Below are positions 3,021-52,572 of a stretch of 64,000 nucleotides of DNA, in pieces; the first letter of the stretch is position 1, and every line of letters starts with the position of its first letter. The notes under the pieces were generated by a model. The model was not told the origin of the DNA. It did not search any database and worked only from the letters and a program-made list of their open reading frames with translations. The translations under genes were made by a program, and so were the position numbers. Source of the DNA: a virus; the IMG/VR virus record IMGVR_UViG_3300020160_001966, positions 52,360 to 116,359 of that record, one strand, 5' to 3'.

Positions 3021-3230
3021 TTATTTTAAATGAAAATGTAAGGCTTTTGTAATTTTTCTCAAAATATCTCTATCAGATACCTTCTCGGCCTTTAATCTAG
3101 TTACTTCCTTTTTAAACGCATTAACAAATTCAGAAGATAAATTAAAATTTCTAGGGTAAAACATCCTAGACTTTGTTAATATTGAACCGTAACTCTCTAA
3201 AACTGTATTGACTTTTTTATAAAACTTCAC
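3021..3230 (-). CDS. Small hypothetical with capsid-targeting-like leader
   Basis: MKFYKKVNTVLE; TATAAATA (3236-3243, minus) 5 nt before GTG. Confidence 0.55.
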   Translation of the reverse strand: MKFYKKVNTVLESYGSILTKSRMFYPRNFNLSSEFVNAFKKEVTRLKAEKVSDRDILRKITKALHFHLK

Positions 3231-3238
3231 ATTATTAT

Positions 3239-3946
3239 TTATATCTTAATAATAGGAGTTTTCTCATCGTTCAAAGCTTCTTTTTGTTCATACAAAAGCT
3301 TTTGCATTTCTGCCAATTCGTTAATATCTAAAAGAGATTGATCCTCACCATACATATTACCATCATCTGTAACATACATGGCTATTTGAGCAATTCTTTC
3401 ATGCGGTTGACCATATATGTCGATAATAGCTGGTGCATTATCTTTTTCAAAGAAAGGTAGTTCTTCAGCACCTTTTTTATACTTCTTTAAGATTGCTTTA
3501 AATAAATTATCAATTTCTTCAACGTATTTAGGATCAACTTCTCTTACACCATTCTTTTCAATAGGAGGCATTAAATCTCTAGTACATATGAAAATGACAT
3601 CGAAATGCGCCATCGATTTCCTAACTTTAAATAAAGAATTTTCTATAAATTTATCGTTAAAACCTTTAACTCCATTACCATAACACCACATGGAATATAT
3701 TAAATTATCTAAAGGACATCTATCAAAAACAACATTTTGATGCAATGTGTAGGGTTCAGCTTCAGCGCATAAGATGTCTAAAATTTCTTCCTGCAATTTT
3801 GGAGTAGTATTTTTAGAATGATTTTTCTTTTTAATCAATTTCCTATAATTACTATTAATTAGTTGATATTTAGGCCATTTTTGCAAAAAATGTTGAATTA
3901 TTGTACTTTTACCAGTACATGCGGCTCCACTAAATGCAATTCTCAT
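3239..3946 (-). CDS. P-loop nucleotide kinase (AAA_28/dNMP-kinase-like)
   Basis: IAFSGAACTGKST Walker A, VVFDRCPLD. Confidence 0.75.
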   Translation of the reverse strand: MRIAFSGAACTGKSTIIQHFLQKWPKYQLINSNYRKLIKKKNHSKNTTPKLQEEILDILCAEAEPYTLHQNVVFDRCPLDNLIYSMWCYGNGVKGFNDKFIENSLFKVRKSMAHFDVIFICTRDLMPPIEKNGVREVDPKYVEEIDNLFKAILKKYKKGAEELPFFEKDNAPAIIDIYGQPHERIAQIAMYVTDDGNMYGEDQSLLDINELAEMQKLLYEQKEALNDEKTPIIKI

Positions 3947-3952
3947 AATGAT

Positions 3953-3980
3953 ATATTATCTCAAAAATTACAATATTCAA
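3953..3980 (-). promoter_or_regulatory. Sigma70-type early promoter
   Basis: TTGAAT-N16-TAATAT, 6 nt before ATG 3946. Confidence 0.55.
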
Positions 3981-4000
3981 CTAAAATATATTACCAAACA

Positions 4001-5236
4001 TTATCTAGATTGTATTCTAGCAGGAGGTCTATCTGCTGTAGGAGATTGTTGTTGTCTAACAGAAGGTCTATTAGTTGTTTGAGACTCTTGGCTGTTCTTC
4101 TCATCTTCCTTTTTACCACCTGAGAAAAAGTTTTTAATCGATGTGCCAACATCTCCAGCAAAATTGGAAGCAGAACCAGCGGCACCGCTCATTCCAGATT
4201 GTGGTCTAAAATCTTTACCTTCTCTTCTAACCTGAACATATTCTGGTTTATTATACTCACCTCTACCTTTTTTTGGATTTCTGATATATAATTGAGTTTT
4301 TGGATTATTAACATCTTCCTGTGTTGCTGGTCTATATTTCCCACCACCCATATCAACATATGATGGAAGAGTGTCTTTTCCAAATTTGATAGGCGTTGGT
4401 ACTTGATATTTTGGGGTCTGATCCGATGTTGTGGGTGTCGTTGAAGATCCTTGAACATTTCTTCCTAAAGTAGCTGCATTTTTATAATCAGATGAAGCAT
4501 ATGCCTTGTTTATGATGGGTTGAAACTTTTTAACATCATCTGGATTGTTTATATCGAATCTTTTACCGTTATTATCGTAAAATTGTTTTAAAGCAGATTT
4601 TAATACTTCATTTTTACCTTTATCTAATGAACTTGCTGAATCATATTCACCACCCATGTATTTTTTAAACACATTTTTAAGTCTTTCATCAGCGGCTAAT
4701 TCAGCTTCACTTCCAGTAGCTTGTGTCGTTTTTTCCGCTTCTGAAGATACTTCATTTCCAGCAGTTTCTTGTGACGGCGCGGCATCTACTCCACCATCTG
4801 GTACACTCACAGGTTCAATTTCTTCTATAGATGCATCTTTGCCAGCAGTGGGAGTTTCACTTTCAACTTCTTCTGGAGTATCACCAGAGTTTATTATCTC
4901 TATTACAACTGGTTGAAAATCTGAATTATAAACACTTGGAAATACAGTTACTAAATTGTTTTGAAATTCTCTAAAAGCATTTGTGGCTTTTTGATCATTG
5001 GAATTTAGATAAGCTTTACCAGCATCTGTATTTGCAGCATCTTTATATCCATTTAAAAATTCCAAAGCTTTTTCATACATGCTAACGCCGCCAGGTGTTT
5101 CGACTTTAGGATTATTTAAAAATTCCTTTTTTTGTTCTTCGGATAAATTTGAAAAATAATTGTTAAATTTAATTATTTTAGAAATTACATCTTCCATGTT
5201 ATTTTCATTCTGTTCTCTCAATATTTTATATTTCAT
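4001..5236 (-). CDS. Hypothetical low-complexity protein, candidate internal head protein
   Basis: Likely start MKYKILREQ at 5236 (the upstream extension overlaps the previous gene); acidic/Thr-rich linkers. Confidence 0.55.
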   Translation of the reverse strand: MKYKILREQNENNMEDVISKIIKFNNYFSNLSEEQKKEFLNNPKVETPGGVSMYEKALEFLNGYKDAANTDAGKAYLNSNDQKATNAFREFQNNLVTVFPSVYNSDFQPVVIEIINSGDTPEEVESETPTAGKDASIEEIEPVSVPDGGVDAAPSQETAGNEVSSEAEKTTQATGSEAELAADERLKNVFKKYMGGEYDSASSLDKGKNEVLKSALKQFYDNNGKRFDINNPDDVKKFQPIINKAYASSDYKNAATLGRNVQGSSTTPTTSDQTPKYQVPTPIKFGKDTLPSYVDMGGGKYRPATQEDVNNPKTQLYIRNPKKGRGEYNKPEYVQVRREGKDFRPQSGMSGAAGSASNFAGDVGTSIKNFFSGGKKEDEKNSQESQTTNRPSVRQQQSPTADRPPARIQSR

Positions 5237-5243
5237 AATACTA

Positions 5244-6041
5244 TTAAAAAGTGGGTTCTGGCAAGTTTGCACTTGAAGATGATCTTTTAGGTTTAGGTGA
5301 TGGTTTAGGGGATGGGGAAGGCGATGCTTTAGGAGTTGCTTTTGAAGATGGTGAGGGGGTTGGTTTTGGTGATGGTTTACCATTCTCGGAATCTTGAGGT
5401 TGATTTTCATCAGATGATGTAGACATCGCAACATTCGCACCAACATGTGCCAATAATGTTCTAGCACCAATAGCACCTAAAACTGCAACTAAAATTTCTT
5501 GCATATTTTTTGGTGAAGATTTAAATATTGTTTTAAAACCATTTATAAATTCTGGTTTTGAAAAAATAATATTTAGTATTTTTTGAATAATAGCCATTAT
5601 ACCTTTAAAAACATAAGCATTTTTGGATGCAGCACTTATAGCAGAACCGCCTTTCCAAGCCACTTTCAAAACCTTTAATCTACCAATCATTGGTATTGAG
5701 AAGAATATACTCAATAAAAGTTCAAATTTATTTTCATCTGAAGGATCGGATTGGTATTTTTTTAAATTTTTTTCAACATCTGGCCAACTGGTAATGCCTG
5801 TTGGATCAAGACATGATAAAAATTCCCCAATTGGATGTTCGAGTATTCCTTGCAAATCGATCAATCCATCAGTGCTTCTTTTTATGGATTCCATAAAATC
5901 TGAAGTTAAACTATATTTTCCAGAAAAATATCCTGCTATCGGTGCTGCTATAGCGGCTAACAACGCTAACGGCACTGCTTCATTTATAAGTTGTACATTA
6001 TTTTTATAATTTTCAAAAATTAACTCGCAGTCTTTATTCAT
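5244..6041 (-). CDS. Hypothetical with hydrophobic helices and Pro/Ser/Lys tail; candidate ejection protein
   Basis: MNKDCELIFENY...LINEA leader; AVPLALLAAIAAPIAGYF; DPTGITSWPDV...IPMIG; TAAATA upstream. Confidence 0.55.
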   Translation of the reverse strand: MNKDCELIFENYKNNVQLINEAVPLALLAAIAAPIAGYFSGKYSLTSDFMESIKRSTDGLIDLQGILEHPIGEFLSCLDPTGITSWPDVEKNLKKYQSDPSDENKFELLLSIFFSIPMIGRLKVLKVAWKGGSAISAASKNAYVFKGIMAIIQKILNIIFSKPEFINGFKTIFKSSPKNMQEILVAVLGAIGARTLLAHVGANVAMSTSSDENQPQDSENGKPSPKPTPSPSSKATPKASPSPSPKPSPKPKRSSSSANLPEPTF

Positions 6042-6114
6042 AATATCTTTATTTATTTAGTTTTTTTTTATTTATGATATCAATTTAAGGTTTGAGTTTA
6101 TAATACAAATATTT

Positions 6115-6708
6115 TTAATTATATACAAGAGCAGGATTCCTCCAGACACTACCATCCCACCATTCAAAACCTTGAAGATTCTTTTTATAGGACAAAAAAT
6201 GTACATAGTATTGAGATATGTATAAATACTCGTAACCTTCTTTGAATAATTTGTCTATCATAAAATAATAAGATAGAGTTCCATAAGAATGTTTTTTACT
6301 CGACTCATCCCAAACCATCATTGGAAAGTAAGGTATATTATCTCTAAAATATAAAAGTCCGCAAAAACAATCATCGAAAAAGAATTTGAAAGTATTGGGG
6401 TCTTCTAGAAGAATAGGTAAAGTTATACTACAGTATTTTTCTTTATTCGCCATTTGAGCGATTTCCAGTACATCTTTATCATATGTTATATTAATTTTTG
6501 AAAGTCTTTTCTGTCTTTTTTTAGATATGGGTTTTAATTTCAACCTCGAAGATCTAACTTGATACCAAGAATCGCTTTTAGGAAATTCAGGCAACCACCC
6601 GTTCTCAAACATATATTCGGATGTTTCATGCTCTTGTTTTGCTGTAACAGTCAAATAATTGTGTCCATCGGTATACAAGCCGTCATTGTGATCAAAAAAA
6701 ATTTTCAT
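6115..6708 (-). CDS. Arg/Leu-tRNA-protein transferase (ATE/Bpt)-like GNAT-fold protein
   Basis: ENGW, WYQVRSSR, SYGTLSYYFMI, YLYISQYY, YKKNLQGFEWWDG resemble ATE motifs. Confidence 0.6.
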   Translation of the reverse strand: MKIFFDHNDGLYTDGHNYLTVTAKQEHETSEYMFENGWLPEFPKSDSWYQVRSSRLKLKPISKKRQKRLSKINITYDKDVLEIAQMANKEKYCSITLPILLEDPNTFKFFFDDCFCGLLYFRDNIPYFPMMVWDESSKKHSYGTLSYYFMIDKLFKEGYEYLYISQYYVHFLSYKKNLQGFEWWDGSVWRNPALVYN

Positions 6709-7453
6709 TTGTTTTTTTAAATTTTAATTCAAAAGGCTCCACATAAGGATAACCATCTTCTATATAAAGTTTGTTGTAATTTAAAATTTCATCAGTATGG
6801 TACTTTATACTTCTTTCGCCAAATGAAAAATTGACTTCTGGTAAGTGATTAACGCTTAAACATTCAAAACCATATTTTTCAGCTATTTTTATCACATTAG
6901 ATACAGTTTGGGGATAGTACTTGAAAAAATTTTCATAATATTTCCTATTTTGTGTTTTTTCAAAAGTATCAGAAACATCAAACGTTTCTTTTAGAAATAA
7001 AATTCCTCCGTCTGCAAGAACTATATTACAATTTTTTAAAGTATTTTCTATTTTGGAGTGAAATAAACTCTCTAAAAAAACACAATGGGTCATGTCTTTT
7101 CCAGTATAATTTTCCATGTCTTCGACTTTAAATACGCAATTTGGAAAATTTGTTCTGGCTTGTTTTACACATTCTTCACTATTAGAAATGCCTTCAGCGT
7201 AACATATTTTACTTAATTTATCAACCATATAACCTGTACCACATCCCATATCAACTACCCTAGAATTTTTGTCGATACCGCTTTGCTTGATAATATGATC
7301 CATGAATTCTTTTTCATCTTTACCCACTGCAAAATTGCAATAAAAGGGAACCTCTAATGGATGACTAAGCAATCCAATTTGAGCGTTGTAAAATTCTCTA
7401 GCGTCTTTCCAAGGAACTTCTATTGTTATATAATTCTCACCAATTTCGGTCAT
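6692..7453 (-). CDS. Class I SAM-dependent methyltransferase
   Basis: VVDMGCGTG motif I; FLESLFH; GGILFLKE. Confidence 0.8.
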   Translation of the reverse strand: MTEIGENYITIEVPWKDAREFYNAQIGLLSHPLEVPFYCNFAVGKDEKEFMDHIIKQSGIDKNSRVVDMGCGTGYMVDKLSKICYAEGISNSEECVKQARTNFPNCVFKVEDMENYTGKDMTHCVFLESLFHSKIENTLKNCNIVLADGGILFLKETFDVSDTFEKTQNRKYYENFFKYYPQTVSNVIKIAEKYGFECLSVNHLPEVNFSFGERSIKYHTDEILNYNKLYIEDGYPYVEPFELKFKKTNENFF

Positions 7454-7491
7454 ATGTATTATATACTAATAATAAATAAAATTACAAAATA

Positions 7492-8238
7492 TTATTTATT
7501 AATAAAATTTTGTAATTTCTTACCACTCTCAGAATTTGATATAGCACCCCATGCTTGAGATAATGTTCCTTGTAAAGCTTTTTGCATTGCAGATGTTGAA
7601 AAATCCATAACAGCGTTTCCAGCATTTTGTAAAGTATCTTTCCAAGAATTATTTTCTGGTGGCGTGGTATTACCATCTTTATCAACATTTTCTTCTTTAT
7701 CATCTGGAATTGTATTATTCTGTTCTATTCCAACCTTAGAAGATCTTGCAACTCCAAGATGAACGTGATCATAATGATTACCACCAACATTTGATAACCA
7801 AATAATCTGGATTCTAAAACCATCTGGTGTATAATATTTGAAATCTCTACCCTCATAAGGTTTCCAAGAAGTAACATTTGCTCCACAATTTCTAGCAACA
7901 GCTATTGCAAATTGCGTTCCAGCCTCAACGTTTCCATTAAATGTCGTATTCAAACCAAAATCTGCTGCATATGCTGTCGTATTTCCAACATAATGATCTG
8001 ACATATACCCCGATTTCGTATTTTTTGTCCCCCTTTTTAAAGAATATGCTTTCCAATTACCCATGGGTAAAAGCGATATAAGTTTTGGCATGGAACCTCC
8101 CCAATCCCCATTTGAACCTCCAGCACTAGGTTGACCAGATGCATTTGCAACACCCACCAATGACCCTAAAGGGTTTTTATATGCCTCAAGAATAATATTA
8201 TATTGTTTTAATATATTATGTGTGTCGGAATTAAACAT
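7492..8238 (-). CDS. Peptidase M15-like Zn peptidoglycan hydrolase
   Basis: SDH-x7-AAD and HYDHVH Zn-ligand motifs. Confidence 0.6.
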   Translation of the reverse strand: MFNSDTHNILKQYNIILEAYKNPLGSLVGVANASGQPSAGGSNGDWGGSMPKLISLLPMGNWKAYSLKRGTKNTKSGYMSDHYVGNTTAYAADFGLNTTFNGNVEAGTQFAIAVARNCGANVTSWKPYEGRDFKYYTPDGFRIQIIWLSNVGGNHYDHVHLGVARSSKVGIEQNNTIPDDKEENVDKDGNTTPPENNSWKDTLQNAGNAVMDFSTSAMQKALQGTLSQAWGAISNSESGKKLQNFINK

Positions 8239-8244
8239 ATTCGA

Positions 8245-8919
8245 TTATTTCATATAGCTACTCATAAAATCTTCGTATTTTTTACCAATAGCCCCCTTTG
8301 CTGTATTTAAAACAGAAGATAATGCTTTTTTCATTCCCTCTTTACTAAAATCCCCACCAGTTAAATCATATACTTGTTGTTTAACATCATCGTATGTACT
8401 AGATGCAACATCTCCAATTTTAGACAATGTATCATTTTCTTCCGAACCATTATCACTTTCATCGTTTGATTTAATATTTGAAACTATTTCTCTTTCGTAA
8501 TCGGAATTAGGTTTTATATTTAAAGGTGTAACTACCAAGTTATTACTATTTTTACCCAAATTTGCAAAATAATTGTACATTTGTTTATCAGATCCAGAGT
8601 AAAAATCTATATTGTTTGTGACAGAACCACCACCTTTATCATCAACTCTATATATACCTTCAGTATTTCCAAATTCAGAACCTACAGGTCTTCCAGTTCT
8701 TTTATCTACTATTTTGACAATAGTACCGTGTGGAAGTTTATTATTTGCTACAGAATATCCTGCTATTAATTTGTTGTTTTTATTTCCCATGTATTGCCAC
8801 TCTGGTTTCAATATACCGTTCCTTATTTCACTTGCAGTTGTGCTATCAATATCAGCATTTCCATAAGCTGTGGCTCCAAACATATATTTTTCCAAAACAA
8901 ATTGTTTAAATGTTCTCAC
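8245..8919 (-). CDS. 3D-domain (MltA/RlpA-like) peptidoglycan-active protein
   Basis: ATAY, VANNKLPHGTIVKI, YRVDDKGG, NIDFY; starts MRTFKQFVLE. Confidence 0.7.
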   Translation of the reverse strand: MRTFKQFVLEKYMFGATAYGNADIDSTTASEIRNGILKPEWQYMGNKNNKLIAGYSVANNKLPHGTIVKIVDKRTGRPVGSEFGNTEGIYRVDDKGGGSVTNNIDFYSGSDKQMYNYFANLGKNSNNLVVTPLNIKPNSDYEREIVSNIKSNDESDNGSEENDTLSKIGDVASSTYDDVKQQVYDLTGGDFSKEGMKKALSSVLNTAKGAIGKKYEDFMSSYMK

Positions 8920-8957
8920 GTTAATATTTATAATAAAGAAACACTAAATATTCTTAT

Positions 8958-9482
8958 ATGGTTGGAAAAAAAGATACAGTAATGATATTTGAAAAATATC
9001 GCAACGTTTTAGCTGAACAACAACAAAACAATAATATACAGTCTATAATAAATCAAATAAACACTTCAGCTTTAGCTCCAGAAGTTAAACAAGGTCTAGT
9101 TTCTTTATTAAAAAATCCCGAAGTTGCATCTAAATGGCAAAGTGGTGATGCTGATACTGTGAATGCTGGTGATTCAAATTTTGCTAAAGAATTATCAATG
9201 GCAAAATATGGCGCTCCAGATCAAGATTTAGCAAATGCTCCAGATCCCAATTTTGCTAAAGAAATGGCCGCTGAAAGAGCTAAACAACAAAAGCAATATC
9301 CAGAACAAGAAGAAAACGAAGAATCTCCAGTAAATTGTGCAACTCTCCCCACACCAGAGGAAAGAAACAATTGTAACGTTAGAAGAAAACAAGTTGCAAT
9401 CAACAGTTTTTCAAAAATTCAAAATCCAGAGAAAAAAACGGTTTATAACGATCCTAACACCAGCAATAAAAGCTGGTTTTAA
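8958..9482 (+). CDS. Hypothetical with capsid-targeting-like leader
   Basis: KKDTVMIFEKYRNVLAEQ; CTAAATA 7 nt upstream. Confidence 0.55.
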   Translation: MVGKKDTVMIFEKYRNVLAEQQQNNNIQSIINQINTSALAPEVKQGLVSLLKNPEVASKWQSGDADTVNAGDSNFAKELSMAKYGAPDQDLANAPDPNFAKEMAAERAKQQKQYPEQEENEESPVNCATLPTPEERNNCNVRRKQVAINSFSKIQNPEKKTVYNDPNTSNKSWF

Positions 9483-9491
9483 TATAAAAAA

Positions 9492-9812
9492 TTAAACACC
9501 CCAACTTGTACCACCGAAAGGATTGCTCCATCCAGTAGTTGTTTTTTGTCCTATTTCAGCTGGAATGGGTAAAGGTTTTTGTGGTTGATTATCTGTGATT
9601 TTTTGCAAAGGAACTCCAAACAAATTTTGATTATCTTTATTGTCAAAATGAGTCTCTTTCATTTTTGAATAACTATCTCTTTTATCTATAGTAGCGTAAA
9701 AAGTTTCAATACAATTTACAATATAATCACATAGAATGTAATCTGGAGTATTACATTTATTGTCTAAAGAAAATTTATTAATTAAATCTGTTAGTTCTTT
9801 CTTAAATTCCAT
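9492..9812 (-). CDS. Hypothetical protein
   Basis: Open frame; NTPDYIL motif. Confidence 0.5.
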   Translation of the reverse strand: MEFKKELTDLINKFSLDNKCNTPDYILCDYIVNCIETFYATIDKRDSYSKMKETHFDNKDNQNLFGVPLQKITDNQPQKPLPIPAEIGQKTTTGWSNPFGGTSWGV

Positions 9813-9841
9813 ATTAAAATTTAGAAAGATTTTTTAAAAAA

Positions 9842-10204
9842 TCAAACCAAACCGAAAGATTTTTTAACTAATAAATTAATCCATCTATCAAAAGACTCTT
9901 TGACTATGGATTTTTTCTTTTTCTTTTTGTCCATGAAAGCTTTTTTCATAGGTTCTTTTTTATTACCATCTCTATCAACATCCAAATAATCTGGTTTTCT
10001 AGATTCTTTTATTTGTTTCTTTTTTGGAATTTTTGCACCAGACTCTTTAGCTTTATTTAAAGAAATAGCCACTGCTTGTTTTTGAGCTTTTTTCTTCGTT
10101 TTGGGTTTAGAAGTCCCAATTTTACCAGTTTTCTTATATTTCCCCATTTCAGATTTAATGTTTTTGGAGATTGTTTCTTTAGATTTTCCTTTTTTAAGTG
10201 GCAT
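9842..10204 (-). CDS. Small Lys-rich basic (DNA-binding/core-like) protein
   Basis: MPLKKGKSKETISKNI..., DYLDVDRDGNKKEPMKKA; TAAATA 8 nt upstream. Confidence 0.6.
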   Translation of the reverse strand: MPLKKGKSKETISKNIKSEMGKYKKTGKIGTSKPKTKKKAQKQAVAISLNKAKESGAKIPKKKQIKESRKPDYLDVDRDGNKKEPMKKAFMDKKKKKKSIVKESFDRWINLLVKKSFGLV

Positions 10205-10218
10205 AGTGAAATTATTTA

Positions 10219-10692
10219 TTATTTTTGAAGTGTTTTTCTATACAAATTTAAAATATCCTCATCATTTAAACCCATTTGCTTTAGATAAGTTTCTATGAAA
10301 GATATATCATTTGATGTTATTGCTTGTTGAACATCTGCGGATTCCAAATCCTTACCAAGTTCTTTCAATTTTTCGACAAGGTGTTTTTTAAATGTTGAAA
10401 GTCTTGAGCTATTAATTTTCGTTGCTTTTCCAGTTTCTTGAGTATTTTCATCTTCAACAGGCTCCAAATTAGACTTAGAGACAGTTTGAATAGGATTAAT
10501 TCCTGTTGGAGTGTTGATAATGAAAACTTTGAACTCTGTGGGAGAACCTCCACATTCTTGCAATACATATCCTTCATAATAAGGTGAATTGATTATACCC
10601 AACTTCTCAGACCACATAGGATCTACCTTAATGCGGACTTTTTGAAGTTTTGTTGTTCCAATCGCTTTTTCCAACAGGTTTAAAAATTTCAC
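10219..10692 (-). CDS. Hypothetical with capsid-targeting-like leader
   Basis: MKFLNLLEK; TATAAATA (10698-10705, minus) 5 nt before GTG. Confidence 0.55.
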   Translation of the reverse strand: MKFLNLLEKAIGTTKLQKVRIKVDPMWSEKLGIINSPYYEGYVLQECGGSPTEFKVFIINTPTGINPIQTVSKSNLEPVEDENTQETGKATKINSSRLSTFKKHLVEKLKELGKDLESADVQQAITSNDISFIETYLKQMGLNDEDILNLYRKTLQK

Positions 10693-10727
10693 TTAATTAT
10701 TTATACAAATGATGTATTAAAATTCAT

Positions 10728-11138
10728 TTAGTCTTTTTTACTAACATCAACCAACCCACCATTTATTTTAATAAATGGTTCTCCCAATAACACCTTATAT
10801 TCATTTTCCGTTCTATCCGCAATTGAAAATGGAACGTTGGAATATTTTTTACCATTTATAGAAACATTAAATTCAACCACTGGTCTATTTTCTTTATTGC
10901 CAGATCCTATATGTATTTTTATATCGTCTTTAAATGGACATGTTATTATTTTCCCATCTATGGTTTCGAACGTAACTTGTCCGTTTTTAGTAGCTTTGAC
11001 TATACCATGTAAAACATTGTGTGCGGTATTTCCAGTATCTGTTTTTGCTTTTAAAAATCCAATACCTTCAATTTCAATATCCTCTACAATACCTAGAGCT
11101 TTTTCTAAAATAGTTTTATATAGTTTTATAAATTTCAC
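10728..11138 (-). CDS. Retropepsin-like aspartic protease (RimK-associated family)
   Basis: AKTDTGN catalytic motif, R.V.F.V.I..., FSIADR, YKVLLG..F. Confidence 0.75.
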   Translation of the reverse strand: MKFIKLYKTILEKALGIVEDIEIEGIGFLKAKTDTGNTAHNVLHGIVKATKNGQVTFETIDGKIITCPFKDDIKIHIGSGNKENRPVVEFNVSINGKKYSNVPFSIADRTENEYKVLLGEPFIKINGGLVDVSKKD

Positions 11139-11142
11139 TTGA

Positions 11143-11160
11143 ATTATTTATATAAATAAT
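11143..11160. promoter_or_regulatory. Palindromic back-to-back late promoters
   Basis: Perfect 18-bp palindrome ATTATTTATATAAATAAT; TATAAATA on each strand 6 and 5 nt from divergent GTG starts. Confidence 0.7.
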
Positions 11161-11163
11161 AAG

Positions 11164-12777
11164 GTGAATAAAGATTGTTATTTAATTTTTGAACAATATA
11201 GATTAATTTCAGAAAATTTAATTCTAGAAAATGTACAAAAGGCTATAGAAATAAGAAACAAATATTACCCATCTTTAAAATATCAAGGAGAATTGATAGG
11301 AGATTATGAAGTTGAGGAAATATACAACGCCTTGGCTAGACAGCAAGTGGCGAAAACGATATATTTGAATTGGATATTCCTTTTAATACAAAATCGTGTT
11401 CCTAGAATAATGGAAGATTTACAAACAATAGCCAAAAATTTAAAAGTTTTTAATTCCAAGAGTAGTAAAATAGCAGCAGATGGATACCCAACTCAACTTT
11501 TCAAACCAAATAAAGAATTAATATATAAAACACCTCAAGACTTATATAAAGTTGTTGAAAATTATATGAATACTGATGATGTTGGTGAAAGAGGATTGTT
11601 AAAAACAGCTGAATATTTGAAATCAAAAGGAGAAGTTGGAAAAATTTATGAAGATGATGTTTATGCGGTTTATACTCCAAAAACATATGATGCATCGAAA
11701 GAATTAGCGTGTTTGACTAATTGGTGTACTAGGTTTCCAGACATGTATAAAAGATATTCTGGTGATGGACCTTTATATATTATTTTAAACAAACAATCTC
11801 TTGGCAATACGGAAGATAATAATAGAATGATACAATTTCATATTCCCTCAAAACAATTTAAAGATATAAAAGATAGAGAAATTAGAGAAAGACCCGTATT
11901 TATGAATAATTTGAAAGGTTTATTCAATACATTATACCCTAATGCATTATCTCAATTTAAAAAATTATCCAATGGTGAAATTGAAAGATCGGAATTAAGT
12001 GACGAAGCTAAACAATCTTTATATCTGATGCCTCAAGAATATAAAGAAGGATTGAATTTACCTTGTGGTGAAATGGAAGAAAAAATAGCCTCTGAATTAG
12101 GTGTTGATTGTGCTTTGGTTTTTGAAACTGACGGAAGATATGAAGTCAATGGTGAAATTTATGAGGTGCAAGAAGTATCACAAGTTAAAAATCAAGCAGT
12201 AGAAGGTATATTAGATTCTGGACTGGAAAGTGATTGGTTTTACAAAAATGTTTTAGATTATGGTAGACAGTATTCATGGGAAACAATTTACCGAAAAGAA
12301 GAATACGAAAACACACATTGGAATCAAAGAAAATATGAATTTGAAGATTTATTTGGAAATGATAATTATGTTGAAATTTATAATGAACATTTAAAACCTT
12401 ATCTGTCTGAAGAAGAAGAATATAAAGTTAGAAAAGCTACAGAATATGGTTACGATACATGGGTTGAAACAAAATTACCACCAAAAGTTTACGATGAGTA
12501 TGATTTGGAAGATGGTTCTTATTTGAAAGATGTCCCATATGAAGTGTATATAAGTTTCATGGAAGACTTTAGAGGAGATAATCCCATAAAATGGTATGTT
12601 GAAGAAAGAGGAGATAACGTTCAAGACATACCTAACATAGATTTGGATGCAGCTGTTGGTGAATTTGTTGAAAATTTAAATTGGGATGACTTGGTATCAT
12701 GGTCAGGAAGCTACGATGGTACAGGTTATAATTTTGATTTAAACGGTACGGAATATATGTTATACAGGATGGAGTAG
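11164..12777 (+). CDS. Large hypothetical (PcfJ-like central motif, acidic C-terminus)
   Basis: YEDDVYAVYTPKTYDAS...TNWCTR...Y...GPLYII; leader MNKDCYLIFEQY...LILE. Confidence 0.5.
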   Translation: MNKDCYLIFEQYRLISENLILENVQKAIEIRNKYYPSLKYQGELIGDYEVEEIYNALARQQVAKTIYLNWIFLLIQNRVPRIMEDLQTIAKNLKVFNSKSSKIAADGYPTQLFKPNKELIYKTPQDLYKVVENYMNTDDVGERGLLKTAEYLKSKGEVGKIYEDDVYAVYTPKTYDASKELACLTNWCTRFPDMYKRYSGDGPLYIILNKQSLGNTEDNNRMIQFHIPSKQFKDIKDREIRERPVFMNNLKGLFNTLYPNALSQFKKLSNGEIERSELSDEAKQSLYLMPQEYKEGLNLPCGEMEEKIASELGVDCALVFETDGRYEVNGEIYEVQEVSQVKNQAVEGILDSGLESDWFYKNVLDYGRQYSWETIYRKEEYENTHWNQRKYEFEDLFGNDNYVEIYNEHLKPYLSEEEEYKVRKATEYGYDTWVETKLPPKVYDEYDLEDGSYLKDVPYEVYISFMEDFRGDNPIKWYVEERGDNVQDIPNIDLDAAVGEFVENLNWDDLVSWSGSYDGTGYNFDLNGTEYMLYRME

Positions 12778-12780
12778 TAA

Positions 12781-13059
12781 TTACCAATTTTTACAACTTA
12801 AATATTTTGCCGTACCTGGCTTTGCCGTAGAGCATTTATGTCTAGCTCGAAAAGATTTTTTACGTTTTGTATTTCCACTCTTTCCAGTAACTTTCACACC
12901 CTTTTGCCCAAAATGTACTCTTTTATAACCTTTTCCTTTTGGGTTTTTCACACACTGCATCCATTTTTTACCTTTGGCTGTTGAAGATGTTTTTTTAGTT
13001 GGGCCAGTACATTTTGAGGATTCTAATAAAACATTAACCAATTGATCGAAATTATTCAT
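12781..13059 (-). CDS. Small basic Cys-containing protein
   Basis: MNNFDQLVNVLLES; VHFGQKG...RKKSFRARHKC...YLSCKNW. Confidence 0.6.
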   Translation of the reverse strand: MNNFDQLVNVLLESSKCTGPTKKTSSTAKGKKWMQCVKNPKGKGYKRVHFGQKGVKVTGKSGNTKRKKSFRARHKCSTAKPGTAKYLSCKNW

Positions 13060-13064
13060 AAAAC

Positions 13065-13084
13065 TATTTATTATTTAATAAATA
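13065..13084. promoter_or_regulatory. Divergent late promoter pair
   Basis: TAAATA on minus (13065-13070) and plus (13079-13084), each 5 nt from an ATG (13059, 13090). Confidence 0.6.
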
Positions 13085-13089
13085 ATAAT

Positions 13090-13695
13090 ATGAGTAGAAA
13101 AAATAGTCTTTTGGAAATTTCCAAAGCTTATGAACAAATTTTAAACGAAATGAATATTGGGATAGATTCATCTGCTCAAAACACTTTGTTGAAAAACACA
13201 ATGAAGCCATATGCATCCGAAAAAAAAGAATATCAATTCGTGATTCCCAAAAAACAATCTTCTAAACAAATGTTTAATACAGCTATGAAAGGGGATTTAG
13301 AAGGTGGTAAATGCCCTTGCGATTCCAATAAATGTGGAGAGCAAAATGACGAAGAAGAATCCAATGAAGATTCCAATTTAAACATGGCAAAATCAGAAAC
13401 TTATAAAATATTAAATTATGCAAAAGATTTGATGGAATTGTTGGAAAAAACTGATAAAATAGAGGCATGGATGTTAGCAAAATTAGTAAATGCAGCAGAT
13501 TATTTGTGTTCAGTAAGAGGCGTATTGGAATACGAAGATTACGAACAAAATGTCAAACAGTGCGTTGATGATTTATCAAGTGATATGAAAATCGTAACCC
13601 ATATAAATAATATGCTTAGTGGAGAAAACGAACATGTTAATGAAGAAGTTTTAAAAAGAGCAATTTTTAATTTGGAGATATTAAGATCAAAATGA
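13090..13695 (+). CDS. Hypothetical, candidate head-associated protein
   Basis: Start MSRKNSLLEISKAYEQILNE at 13090; MAKSETYKI...EAWMLAKL..AADYL block. Confidence 0.55.
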   Translation: MSRKNSLLEISKAYEQILNEMNIGIDSSAQNTLLKNTMKPYASEKKEYQFVIPKKQSSKQMFNTAMKGDLEGGKCPCDSNKCGEQNDEEESNEDSNLNMAKSETYKILNYAKDLMELLEKTDKIEAWMLAKLVNAADYLCSVRGVLEYEDYEQNVKQCVDDLSSDMKIVTHINNMLSGENEHVNEEVLKRAIFNLEILRSK

Positions 13696-14078
13696 GTAGA
13701 TTTCACACATTATTAAACAGAGCGTATAGGGAGATAATAACAGAACAAGAACAACCTCCAGTTCCACAAGGAACCCCTGAACAAGCAGTACCAACACCTA
13801 TTCCAGAAGTTCCTGAAACTCAACCACAACCTCAATCCCCAATTAAACCTTTAACATCAGAAGGTGAAACAGTTTTGGTTAGAATATTAGCTAAAGCTAT
13901 ATTAGTGGATATAACAGATCCAGTAGATGAACTTTCTGTTAAAGATATTTCTGAGAACAAAATCAATGCAGAAAACGCCCAAGAGTCTTTAACAAAATTA
14001 GTATCTATCATAAGAAAATATGATCAATCTGTTTCTAATGAGTTAGATATAGACAAGATTTTTCAATCAACTAAATAA
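13692..14078 (+). CDS. Hypothetical with leader and Pro/Gln-rich linker
   Basis: MSRFHTLLNRAYREIITEQ; ATGA overlap with previous gene. Confidence 0.55.
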   Translation: MSRFHTLLNRAYREIITEQEQPPVPQGTPEQAVPTPIPEVPETQPQPQSPIKPLTSEGETVLVRILAKAILVDITDPVDELSVKDISENKINAENAQESLTKLVSIIRKYDQSVSNELDIDKIFQSTK

Positions 14079-15691: not shown

Positions 15692-17145
15692 TAGATATAA
15701 CTTTAGATTCGAAGAAAAATAAAGGAATATATTCTGGAAAATACTTTGATGAGATTAAAGAGTTCTTTTCTGTAAAAAACGATGCTGCAAAATTTGCAAG
15801 AAATAGATTTGTGCCATCTAGAAAATATGCCATAACTAGCACTGGTCGGTTTGACCCTTGCTTATTGAGTGAAATAATTAAATTTTTAGAACAAAAAACT
15901 GAAACAAAAATAAAAGATATTAAAATAGACCCTCTTTTATTGGATGAGAATATGCCATCCAATCGTGGATGGAGGCAAAACCCCGCATTTTCGTTAAATG
16001 AATATGAATTATCGTTAAAATTGAGGGATTATCAAAAGGATATCGTTGATAAATGTTTGAATTTGGGTAGAGGTACTGTTTTATTGGCGACAGCTGGTGG
16101 TAAAACGTTGGTTATGGCATCACTTTTGTCTAAAGTGTGGACAATGCATTCTTCTTTTAAGGTTTGTTTGATAGTTCCGAATAGAGGTTTGGTTGAACAG
16201 ACTAATAATGATTTCAACGATTATAAAGTACCCTTCACTTTTTCTAAGTGGACTGGCGACGATCCTTTGGATCTTACTAAGAATGTTATAATCTGTAACA
16301 GTTCCATTTTACAATCTAAAAAAAGTGATACGTCTTGGATGGAATTTGTCGATTTGTTGATGATTGACGAATGTCATCACTTGAAAAAGGATAATGAGAT
16401 AACGAAAATAGTAGATTCATGTAAAACCAAGTATAAATTTGGTTTTACTGGCACCTTACCAGAGGATAAAATAGATCAATGGTCTATTATAGGTAAAATA
16501 GGGCCAGTCATATATCAAAAAAGAAGTTTTGAATTGAGAGATCAGAAACATGTTGTACCTGCTATAGCCCAAATATTGGAAATTCATTATAAAACTAAAC
16601 CTGTTAGGAGTTTCGGTACTTTGCTGGCCACGGAAAACTATAAAAATGAAATAAACTTTATAAAAAGTAATAAATTCAGAAATAATGTTATAAAAAAAAT
16701 AGCCAAAAACTCGAATAATAACATATTAATATTGTTGGATTATCTGGATCATGGTGATATACTATACAATATATTGAAAAGCGAACTCAAAGATAAAGAA
16801 GTCTTTTATATAAAGGGTGAGGTTGATGTTTCTGATAGAGAAACGATGAGGAAGACTATGGAATGTAAAGATAACGTTGTCTGCATAGCTATTTCTAAAA
16901 TTTTCTCAACTGGTATAAATATAAAAAATTTACACTATATAGTTTTTGCTGGTGGTGGTAAATCCAAAATTAAAACGCTTCAAAGTATAGGTAGAGGATT
17001 GCGTTTACATGAAAAGAAAAATACTTTATACATAGTTGATATTGCAGATCAACTATATTATGGAATGCAGCATCAGAGTAAAAGAATCGAGTTTTATGAT
17101 CAAGAGAAAATATCTTCACAATTGTTAAAATTATATGAAAATTAA
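15688..17145 (+). CDS. uvsW: SF2 DNA helicase UvsW
   Basis: LRDYQ, ATAGGKT, DECH, FGFTGT, STGIN, QSIGRGLR. Confidence 0.9.
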   Translation: MIDITLDSKKNKGIYSGKYFDEIKEFFSVKNDAAKFARNRFVPSRKYAITSTGRFDPCLLSEIIKFLEQKTETKIKDIKIDPLLLDENMPSNRGWRQNPAFSLNEYELSLKLRDYQKDIVDKCLNLGRGTVLLATAGGKTLVMASLLSKVWTMHSSFKVCLIVPNRGLVEQTNNDFNDYKVPFTFSKWTGDDPLDLTKNVIICNSSILQSKKSDTSWMEFVDLLMIDECHHLKKDNEITKIVDSCKTKYKFGFTGTLPEDKIDQWSIIGKIGPVIYQKRSFELRDQKHVVPAIAQILEIHYKTKPVRSFGTLLATENYKNEINFIKSNKFRNNVIKKIAKNSNNNILILLDYLDHGDILYNILKSELKDKEVFYIKGEVDVSDRETMRKTMECKDNVVCIAISKIFSTGINIKNLHYIVFAGGGKSKIKTLQSIGRGLRLHEKKNTLYIVDIADQLYYGMQHQSKRIEFYDQEKISSQLLKLYEN

Positions 17146-17623
17146 AGAACCAGTTAAAGAACCAGTTAAGGAAAAAGTTAAAAGAAAAAAACAAGATAAG
17201 CCGCATTATGTCAATGCGAGAGAATTCGAAGATGCTTTGATAAAATATTATGATGATGATAAAATAAGCGATTATATTGGGCAGAGTTTACATAAAATAG
17301 CAACAGGGTTATCGTACGCTCCCAACTTTATAAATTATTCCTTCAAAGAAGATATGGTAGGTGATGCAGTTGTTAAAATGTACCAAGCCATATTGCATAA
17401 AAAATTTAAATTGAATAAAGGTTTTTCTCCTTTTGGTTATTTTACAACCATCGCATATCATGCTTTCATATGTCGAATAAAAAAGGAAAAGAAACATCAT
17501 GAGGTCATTGAAGAGTATAAGGAAAGAAACTTTGATTTAATGATGCAAGGTTCAGAGGATTTTCCCTCACATAAAGTTTATAGTAGACCAGCACCTTTGG
17601 ACAAAGCCGATTATACCTACTAA
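17135..17623 (+). CDS. gp55: Late-transcription sigma factor
   Basis: HYVN..EF, IA.GLS..PNFINYS.KEDM.GD, PF.YFT.I...AF..RI.KEKK. Confidence 0.9.
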   Translation: MKIKEPVKEPVKEKVKRKKQDKPHYVNAREFEDALIKYYDDDKISDYIGQSLHKIATGLSYAPNFINYSFKEDMVGDAVVKMYQAILHKKFKLNKGFSPFGYFTTIAYHAFICRIKKEKKHHEVIEEYKERNFDLMMQGSEDFPSHKVYSRPAPLDKADYTY

Positions 17624-52288: not shown

Positions 52289-52572
52289 AAACTATAGACA
52301 AAGAATTTACTTATAAAAATTTTAGTTACAAACAATTGCTCAGAGATGGTAAAATTGCAATATATGAACAAAAATTAAAGGATGGTATTAAATGCGATTA
52401 TGAGGTTGTTATTATAGAAGAACATAATGGCTATGAAATAGCTGGTAATAAATTTCCACCATCTGAGATGTATCCATCATCTAACCAGTGGGGTGTTAAG
52501 GGTTTTACATTCACTGATTATGATGATGCATTGATAAAATTTAAAAAACTAAAGAAGAAACATGAAAAATAA
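52285..52572 (+). CDS. Hypothetical protein
   Basis: YEV...E.YP.S..WG..G.T. Confidence 0.5.
   Translation: MKTIDKEFTYKNFSYKQLLRDGKIAIYEQKLKDGIKCDYEVVIIEEHNGYEIAGNKFPPSEMYPSSNQWGVKGFTFTDYDDALIKFKKLKKKHEK

Follow-up and report, generated by a model that had tools for sequence, protein, structure and literature searches.

Two adjacent putative wall enzymes of an uncultured T4-like phage carry T4-like leaders and share a C-terminal tail

Two Unrelated Putative Wall Enzymes Are Encoded Side by Side

We analyzed a 64,000-nucleotide stretch of viral DNA (hereafter the window), which is the right-hand 64 kb (positions 52,360 to 116,359) of the single 116,359-base IMG/VR record IMGVR_UViG_3300020160_001966, and focused on two adjacent open reading frames (ORFs) on its minus strand, 7492–8238 (248 aa) and 8245–8919 (224 aa), which lie 6 bases apart. 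The latter starts with GTG and encodes a putative glycan-cleaving enzyme of the MltA/3D fold, recognized by a Foldseek fold match (the 3D protein). The former encodes a putative metallopeptidase of the LAS fold (M15-like); it begins 6 bases past the stop codon of the 3D gene and has no TATAAATA of its own, a motif that we take to be the T4 late-promoter consensus. The two proteins share a C-terminal tail, and each carries an N-terminal leader.

Judged by its T4-like replication, late-sigma, portal, sheath and gp23 genes, the phage is an uncultured T4-like myovirus. The window (G+C about 30%) encodes UvsY, UvsW, a gp55-type late sigma factor (17135–17623), gp46/47, gp43, UvsX, gp41, gp32, gp61 and the gp20 portal; gp23, tail sheath, tail tube, large terminase and a gp5-like hub protein are found in the remainder of the record, whose completeness is estimated at 55%. 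The window region has no match, by DNA or by protein, among 50,697 GenBank phage records.

According to its predicted structure, the 3D protein has a double-psi beta-barrel (DPBB) fold of the MltA/YuiC type, the fold of the 3D lytic transglycosylases: the model matched MltA (7esj_A; Foldseek E 8.8e-5, probability 1.00), further MltA entries and YuiC (probability 0.95–1.00). The catalytic core (about residues 13–135; 8515–8883, minus strand) was modeled with high confidence (predicted local distance difference test, pLDDT, 88–95) and contains the conserved Asp72, Asp94 and Asp105. Among 319 candidates we assigned 47 proteins to this family, several of them named at their source as 3D-domain proteins; across 46 sequences D105 and D25 are invariant, and D72 and D94 are conserved in at least 90%. 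Three conserved aspartates are the defining feature of the 3D domain (PF06725), to which these residues presumably correspond. PF06725 itself gave weak matches in 23 of the 46 family members (best E 6.6e-4), and a PDB sequence search with the family profile gave one insignificant match (E 0.71).

The peptidase family comprises 92 proteins among 376 candidates. A scan of metagenomes yielded just 4 loci, of which 2 duplicated loci already known from viral contigs. S80, D81, H82, H155, H158 and H160 are invariant in all 92 sequences, while D93 and D157 are conserved in at least 90%. The resulting H...D...HxH pattern probably represents the metal ligands of LAS/M15-type enzymes, with a His-to-Asp spacing of H-x10-D. 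The core of the model is confident (pLDDT 88–96). Structural alignment with VIA-align placed it closest to the VldE C-domain (Z 6.9, root-mean-square deviation 2.8, 88 residues aligned; the tool warns that a Z below 8 can be due to chance), followed by the Zn DD-peptidase 1lbu of Streptomyces (Z 5.8), hedgehog N-domains (Z 5.1–5.2), Ply500 (Z 4.1) and the L-Ala-D-Glu peptidase that is the T5 endolysin (Z 3.7). A profile of the 92 sequences had no sequence match in the PDB at E <= 1. The names "M15-like" and "3D" used in the preliminary description of this DNA are therefore apt at the level of the fold and not at that of family models, as neither window protein reached any Pfam or PHROG family (0 and 0 for each); unlike known MltA/YuiC and LAS proteins, both are too distant in sequence for the Pfam models, and the H-x10-D spacing further sets the peptidase apart.

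A role of both proteins on peptidoglycan is well supported by association, that is, by domain fusions and predicted folds. Other phage contigs encode fusions of the peptidase domain with Glucosaminidase and PG_binding_1, with Phage_lysozyme2 and PG_binding_1, with SLT or with GH19, and also a 2352-aa protein that contains the domain together with SLT. Five of the 12 peptidase-domain proteins scanned matched a family that cleaves wall glycan (PF01832, PF18013, PF01464 twice and PF00182), and a sixth had a weak PG_binding_1 match only. In a cellular relative (P0092), a Pfam 3D domain precedes the peptidase domain. Two proteins of 598–637 aa (L010 and L011) combine an unassigned N-terminal part, PG_binding_1, a glycosidase and the LAS peptidase; they keep a leader and have no tail.

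The Shared Tail Is Longer than a 23-Residue Tag and Co-varies within Genomes

The preliminary description had reported a C-terminal tag of 23 residues common to both proteins, and the two strings are indeed present at peptidase residues 212–234 (7537–7605) and 3D protein residues 190–212 (8284–8352). BLASTP of one protein against the other aligned just this stretch (16 of 35 residues identical, 30.4 bits, E 1e-5 for a single comparison) and revealed no similarity between the catalytic domains, which also differ in fold, in agreement with the claim that they are unrelated. A loose regular expression for the motif matched only these two among the 487 ORFs of at least 40 aa in the whole 116,359-base record.

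The sharing was thus borne out, while the size and the idea of a single fixed tag were not: the shared tail spans about 45–60 residues with two or three predicted helices, starts at a shared DTL, and falls into subtypes. It covers residues 162–224 of the 3D protein, from DTL on (8248–8436, minus strand; helices 166–186 and 193–223), and residues 197–248 of the peptidase (7495–7650, minus strand; helices 199–212, 215–234 and 237–246). The acidic linker said to precede it is also there, the 40 residues before the tail having net charges of −4 and −9 in the two proteins, and the last 45 residues are mildly basic (+2 and +3). With hydrophobic moments of 0.46–0.47 against a mean of 0.25 in the 3D protein and of 0.41–0.46 against a mean of 0.24 in the peptidase, the tag, described earlier as an amphipathic helix, appears as a conserved, moderately amphipathic helical element common to both.

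To follow the tail across homologs, we used a hidden Markov model (HMM) of nine tails from the window and related loci, with a family threshold of E <= 1e-3. With this model, conservation of the motif in homologs, which had been set as a check, was found in 49 of the 92 peptidase-family and 16 of the 46 3D-family proteins, where this long-type tail ends a median of 2 residues from the C terminus. Most other phage homologs carry different tail subtypes, and every subtype occurs in both families.

Tail subtypes co-vary within genomes. In seven lineages, the tails of the same genome were more alike than those of different genomes (observed sum 709 versus a mean of 337). Only 2 of 5040 re-pairings reached the observed sum, and the top score belonged to the same-genome partner in 4 of 7 rows and in 5 of the 7 columns. 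In a version with eight pairs, three of which come from one lineage, the observed sum was reached by 10 of 20,000 permutations. In one lineage, about 45 tail residues are almost the same in two otherwise unrelated proteins.

A tail HMM applied to 4872 ORFs from the record and the fetched loci matched the tails of the 3D protein (E 1.5e-12) and the peptidase (E 1.8e-14) and no other protein of the record. Elsewhere it yielded three further carriers, each adjoining a family member: L008:9273-10007 (E 3.6e-13), L007:9279-10001 (E 2.1e-7) and L051:4501-5157 (E 0.01), the last with an H...D...HxDxH pattern seen by eye. The first two represent a cassette swap. In L007 and L008, the gene before the peptidase retains a leader and a tail like those of the 3D gene L054:9986-10645, and its 3D domain has been exchanged for domains that carry an NNPG motif. 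The L007-type domain (P0143, P0147) matched PHROGs named endolysin, tape measure protein and tail injection transglycosylase, and an Atlas look-up returned unnamed clusters only; the L008-type domain had no family match. From these gene arrangements, the design reads as a leader, an exchangeable wall-enzyme cassette and a tail, always in an adjacent pair of a putative glycan cutter and a putative peptide cutter.

A HMMER search of 1.84 billion representatives with the nine-tail profile returned six proteins at E <= 0.001, all from these families and three of them new (P0145, P0146 and P0147). Given these few matches, the tail would be either narrow in range or too short for wide detection. A word-indexed search with the tail alone recovered four close peptidase homologs among six candidates, and nothing usable came from looking up the tail in the Atlas. 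Complex prediction of the two tails (residues 185–248 and 150–224, with alignments, run without controls) scored 0.00 and gave no verdict.

The Leaders Resemble T4 Capsid Targeting Sequences

Both proteins were said to carry a leader, and both do. That of the 3D protein is MRTFKQFVLE (8890–8919, minus strand), ten residues ending in V-L-E, and it matches the capsid targeting sequence of T4 IPII and IPIII, which both begin MKTYQEFIAE (translated from AF158101). M1, T3, F7 and E10 are identical (4 of 10), and the two differ by Y/F at position 4, I/V at position 8 and K/R at position 2, where most homologs have K. The 3D-family consensus is MxTFKQFIxE, with F4 and E10 conserved in at least 90% of the 46 homologs. 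As described in PMC9026906, the T4 prohead protease gp21 cleaves after L/I-x-E, capsid targeting sequences are 10–19 residues long, and the residues important for targeting are 4 and 7, those important for processing 8 and 10. At these four positions the 3D-family consensus has F, F, I and E, and T4 has Y, F, I and E. The 3D leader thereby has the features of the T4 type: a propeptide of 10–19 residues, IPIII-like, with an L/I-x-E end. Public gene calls often begin at Met13 of the 3D gene and so miss the leader, with P0094 and the Atlas record starting at residue 13.

The leader of the peptidase, MFNSDTHNILKQYNIILE (8185–8238, minus strand), is eighteen residues long, ends in I-L-E and is part of a predicted helix (residues 4–21); like that of the 3D protein, it finishes on the L/I-x-E site of the prohead protease. 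Its homologs have either this longer type or a ten-residue MITFKxFLLE type. A hydrophobic-x-E motif occurs within the first 25 residues in 44 of 46 3D-family proteins, compared with 0, 1 and 0 of 46 in three internal control windows, and in 81 of 92 peptidase-family proteins, compared with 2, 3 and 7 of 92. The T4 core proteins gp67, gp68, gp21, gp22 and gp24 have N termini of the same style.

The Pair Lies in a Block of Leader-Bearing Genes with Late-Promoter Motifs

The GTG start of the 3D gene is preceded, at a distance of 5 bases, by a TATAAATA site (8925–8932, minus strand). In the window, 6 of 23 such sites stand 5–6 bases before the first start codon of an ORF (2096–2103 and 11151–11158 on the plus strand; 3236–3243, 8925–8932, 10698–10705 and 11145–11152 on the minus strand), compared with 0–3 among 12–27 sites for control 8-mers. 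Of the six ORFs concerned, five start with GTG and five bear a leader. This arrangement suggests that late transcription sets in right at the start codon or beside it.

The pair belongs to a block of about 15 genes (3021–14078) that nearly all have T4-like leaders and are syntenic in relatives. The block includes a PF05618 Zn_protease-like protein (10728–11138), a 537-aa protein (11164–12777), a very basic 92-aa protein (12781–13059) and, without a leader, an AAA_28 P-loop protein (3239–3946). One leader-bearing protein (5244–6041, minus strand) has hydrophobic segments, a Pro/Ser/Lys-rich end and no match to a family of known function; in L006, L055, L007 and L008 its homologs are encoded immediately after the peptidase, and it may be a membrane part of the same module. 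The fourth gene of the conserved block (4001–5240, minus strand) has no family match and an uncertain start, probably an internal Met that opens the leader-like MKYKILRE. Homologs of this gene come after the hydrophobic protein in L055, L007 and L008. Across four related loci, the order of the pair, the leader-bearing hydrophobic protein and then the 4001 homolog would fit a delivery module. In the window, the peptidase and the hydrophobic protein are separated by two genes (6115–7453), one an unassigned ORF of 197 aa and the other encoding a class I methyltransferase (PF13649, E 5e-9). They look like an insertion into the module, because they are absent at this place in L006, L055, L007 and L008.

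A Proposed Role as Head-Loaded Entry Enzymes

We propose, with a probability of about 50%, that the pair are head-loaded entry enzymes and that their tail is a common adaptor. Both would be expressed late, as a glycan-strand enzyme of the MltA/3D fold and a zinc peptidase of the LAS fold, each with a leader in front of the catalytic domain and, behind it, an acidic linker and a helical tail. The leader would act like a T4 capsid targeting sequence and bring the protein into the prohead core, where the prohead protease would cut it off after L/I-x-E. The mature enzymes would then travel in the head and, when the next cell is infected, exit together with the DNA. The tail, kept on the mature proteins, would bind the enzymes to each other or to one shared partner and so deliver them jointly at the wall.

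The comparison with T4 runs both ways. Like T4 IPI, IPII, IPIII and Alt, whose propeptide is removed by gp21, the proteins have a short N-terminal amphipathic putative propeptide ending in L/I-x-E, and as in the T4 internal proteins, unrelated cargo domains stand behind one leader and the genes are clustered. Unlike in T4, the proposed cargo here consists of putative wall-degrading enzymes, a kind of protein that T4 does not load into its head; the entry lysozyme of T4 sits on the baseplate protein gp5, as described in PMC5380687. The proteins here also have a second shared module at the C terminus. In proposed role, the pair resembles the head-internal ejection proteins of podoviruses (T7/T3 gp16, SP6 gp36, phiKMV gp36), where a head-carried wall enzyme is released at infection. 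According to PMC5380687, head-carried wall enzymes are known from short-tailed phages; membrane-active partners are encoded alongside the podovirus proteins, which would be a further likeness. The podovirus ejection proteins are single large polypeptides (107–143 kDa), and the short-tailed phages that encode them build an extensible tail; here there are two small enzymes (about 25 kDa each) of a contractile-tailed T4-like phage. The likeness appears to be functional only and not one of sequence: for the pair, 5244–6041 and 4001–5240, no PHROG or Pfam family of the podovirus ejectosome kind (T7 gp14–16, P22 gp7/16/20) was found. Full-text searches of the literature found no paper on T4-like phages that load wall enzymes into the head, nor on such a shared C-terminal module. 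In 2017, only two phages were listed in PMC5380687 with two different particle-borne lysins.

Several observations weigh against our proposal. The tails were modeled with low confidence (pLDDT 35–48 in the 3D protein, 31–60 in the peptidase). For the peptidase, Foldseek returned nothing at E <= 0.001, and the top of a wide structural scan, LAS-fold zinc peptidases together with hedgehog N-domains, reached only the middling Z of 6.9 given above; the lack of Pfam and PHROG matches for both window proteins tells in the same direction, as does hhalign, which related the 3D family to the 3D-bearing P0092 with a probability of only 1.7%. The within-genome likeness of the tails could stem from recombination between adjacent genes and not from a shared partner: identical tail residues are encoded by identical codons in 10 of 15, 23 of 35, 21 of 30 and 15 of 28 cases (raw counts, without a codon-usage baseline). 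Furthermore, three of the seven lineage pairings were deduced solely from contigs of equal length. The fused proteins L010 and L011 come from a different phage group that is not syntenic with the window phage. The prohead protease gp21 (PF03420) was not found in the record, which is only 55% complete; the gp23 homolog of the phage has a T4-like N-terminal region with L-L-E sites. Finally, head proteins of T4 that leave with the DNA are taken in PMC9026906 to reach the cytoplasm, and a wall enzyme that arrived there would be useless.

If the proteins are virion cargo, the tail may still have another task, namely that of an envelope-targeting element whose amphipathic helices hold the ejected enzymes at the membrane face or the wall in the periplasm, doing the job of PG_binding_1 in the fused relatives. 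The tail helices are indeed amphipathic and mildly basic behind an acidic linker, the carriers are wall enzymes only while other leader-bearing neighbors lack the tail, and the fused L010 and L011 have PG_binding_1 and no tail, whereas the split forms have the tail and no wall-binding domain. We consider this unlikely, although it deserves some weight: charge and hydrophobicity are modest, the fused proteins belong to that different phage group, and a generic binder would need no matching of subtypes within genomes, unless recombination alone explains the matching.

The location in the head can be questioned as well. The enzymes might instead be tail or baseplate components, with the C-terminal tail docking on the hub or tube in place of the lysozyme domain of T4 gp5 and the leader serving another role. 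The domain architecture of P0137 shows that a 3D domain can ride on the baseplate hub, a further point against head loading: a 3D domain 65% identical to that of the window lies inside a gp5-type OB domain, between LPWAE and VWxFF segments. In T4-type virions the entry-time wall enzyme is the gp5 baseplate lysozyme, and the known wall enzymes of myovirus particles are located on the baseplate, as described in PMC5380687. The gp5-like protein of our phage (P0149, L003:2400-4826; 808 aa) shows only an OB domain in Pfam, without a lysozyme or other enzyme domain, and has a low-complexity insert of about 80 residues where P0137 has the 3D domain; a PDB sequence search with it returned nothing. Distant peptidase homologs also occur in proteins of 2352 and 2388 aa that are possibly tape-measure-like. 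Here, unlike in T4 gp5, the enzyme is a free protein with leader and tail. We give the baseplate little weight and regard it as improbable, since at the functionally important positions the leader agrees with the T4 head-targeting sequence, the pair belongs to a leader block that includes small, very basic proteins like the T4 internal proteins, and it is outside the tail and baseplate gene block. Very unlikely, in our view, is that the two are endolysins, with a tail that acts as a membrane-active or regulatory helix at lysis and a coincidental likeness of the leader to T4. Both LAS peptidases and lytic transglycosylases often serve as endolysins, the fold matches include Ply500 and the T5 endolysin, and endolysin genes too are expressed late. 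Nevertheless, the record encodes a further, leaderless protein of the Phage_lysozyme family (L004:8172-8786, that is G000:C1:46172-46786; PF00959, E 4.3e-8), which is the likelier endolysin. Leaders ending in the protease motif are conserved in both families (44 of 46 and 81 of 92), relatives of the domains occur within giant virion-type proteins, and instead of a holin-like gene, the pair adjoins other leader-bearing genes in conserved synteny.

Returning to head-loaded enzymes with an adaptor tail, a wider version can be formulated, which we put forward as a tentative and rather doubtful possibility. A T4-like lineage may have shifted the task of breaching the wall from the baseplate spike to the head, loading glycan and peptide cutters by means of a capsid-targeting leader. 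A plug-in C-terminal adaptor that takes any cassette (3D, the NNPGN-motif domain or two kinds of LAS-like peptidase) might couple them to each other and to the neighboring leader-bearing membrane proteins, forming an ejectosome-like periplasmic apparatus in a myovirus. T4-type phages of this sort are abundant and uncultured, and if one of them does load a matched glycanase and peptidase into its head, this would change the picture of how such phages enter cells. The co-variation of tails within genomes offers a handle for finding the partner of the tail, and the design of leader, cassette and tail represents a natural plug-in scheme that could serve to load enzymes into capsids.

Further Observations on Tails and Leaders

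We also considered the tail as a cleaved C-terminal propeptide like that of Alt and rejected this, as inspection by eye revealed no L/I-x-E site between catalytic domain and tail. Weak matches of PF11673 to the tail (5 of 46, best 0.0016) were taken as noise. Seven homologs of the glycan enzyme (P0102, P0110, P0115, P0123, P0134, P0145 and P0146) have an extra conserved C-terminal piece past the tail; its last residues are F-L-G-E and one more, which places a protease-type L-x-E site at the extreme C terminus. In the phage group of L010 and L011, another recurring leader (MIRLKxIL.E, MKKLKDILSE and similar) is found on several genes.

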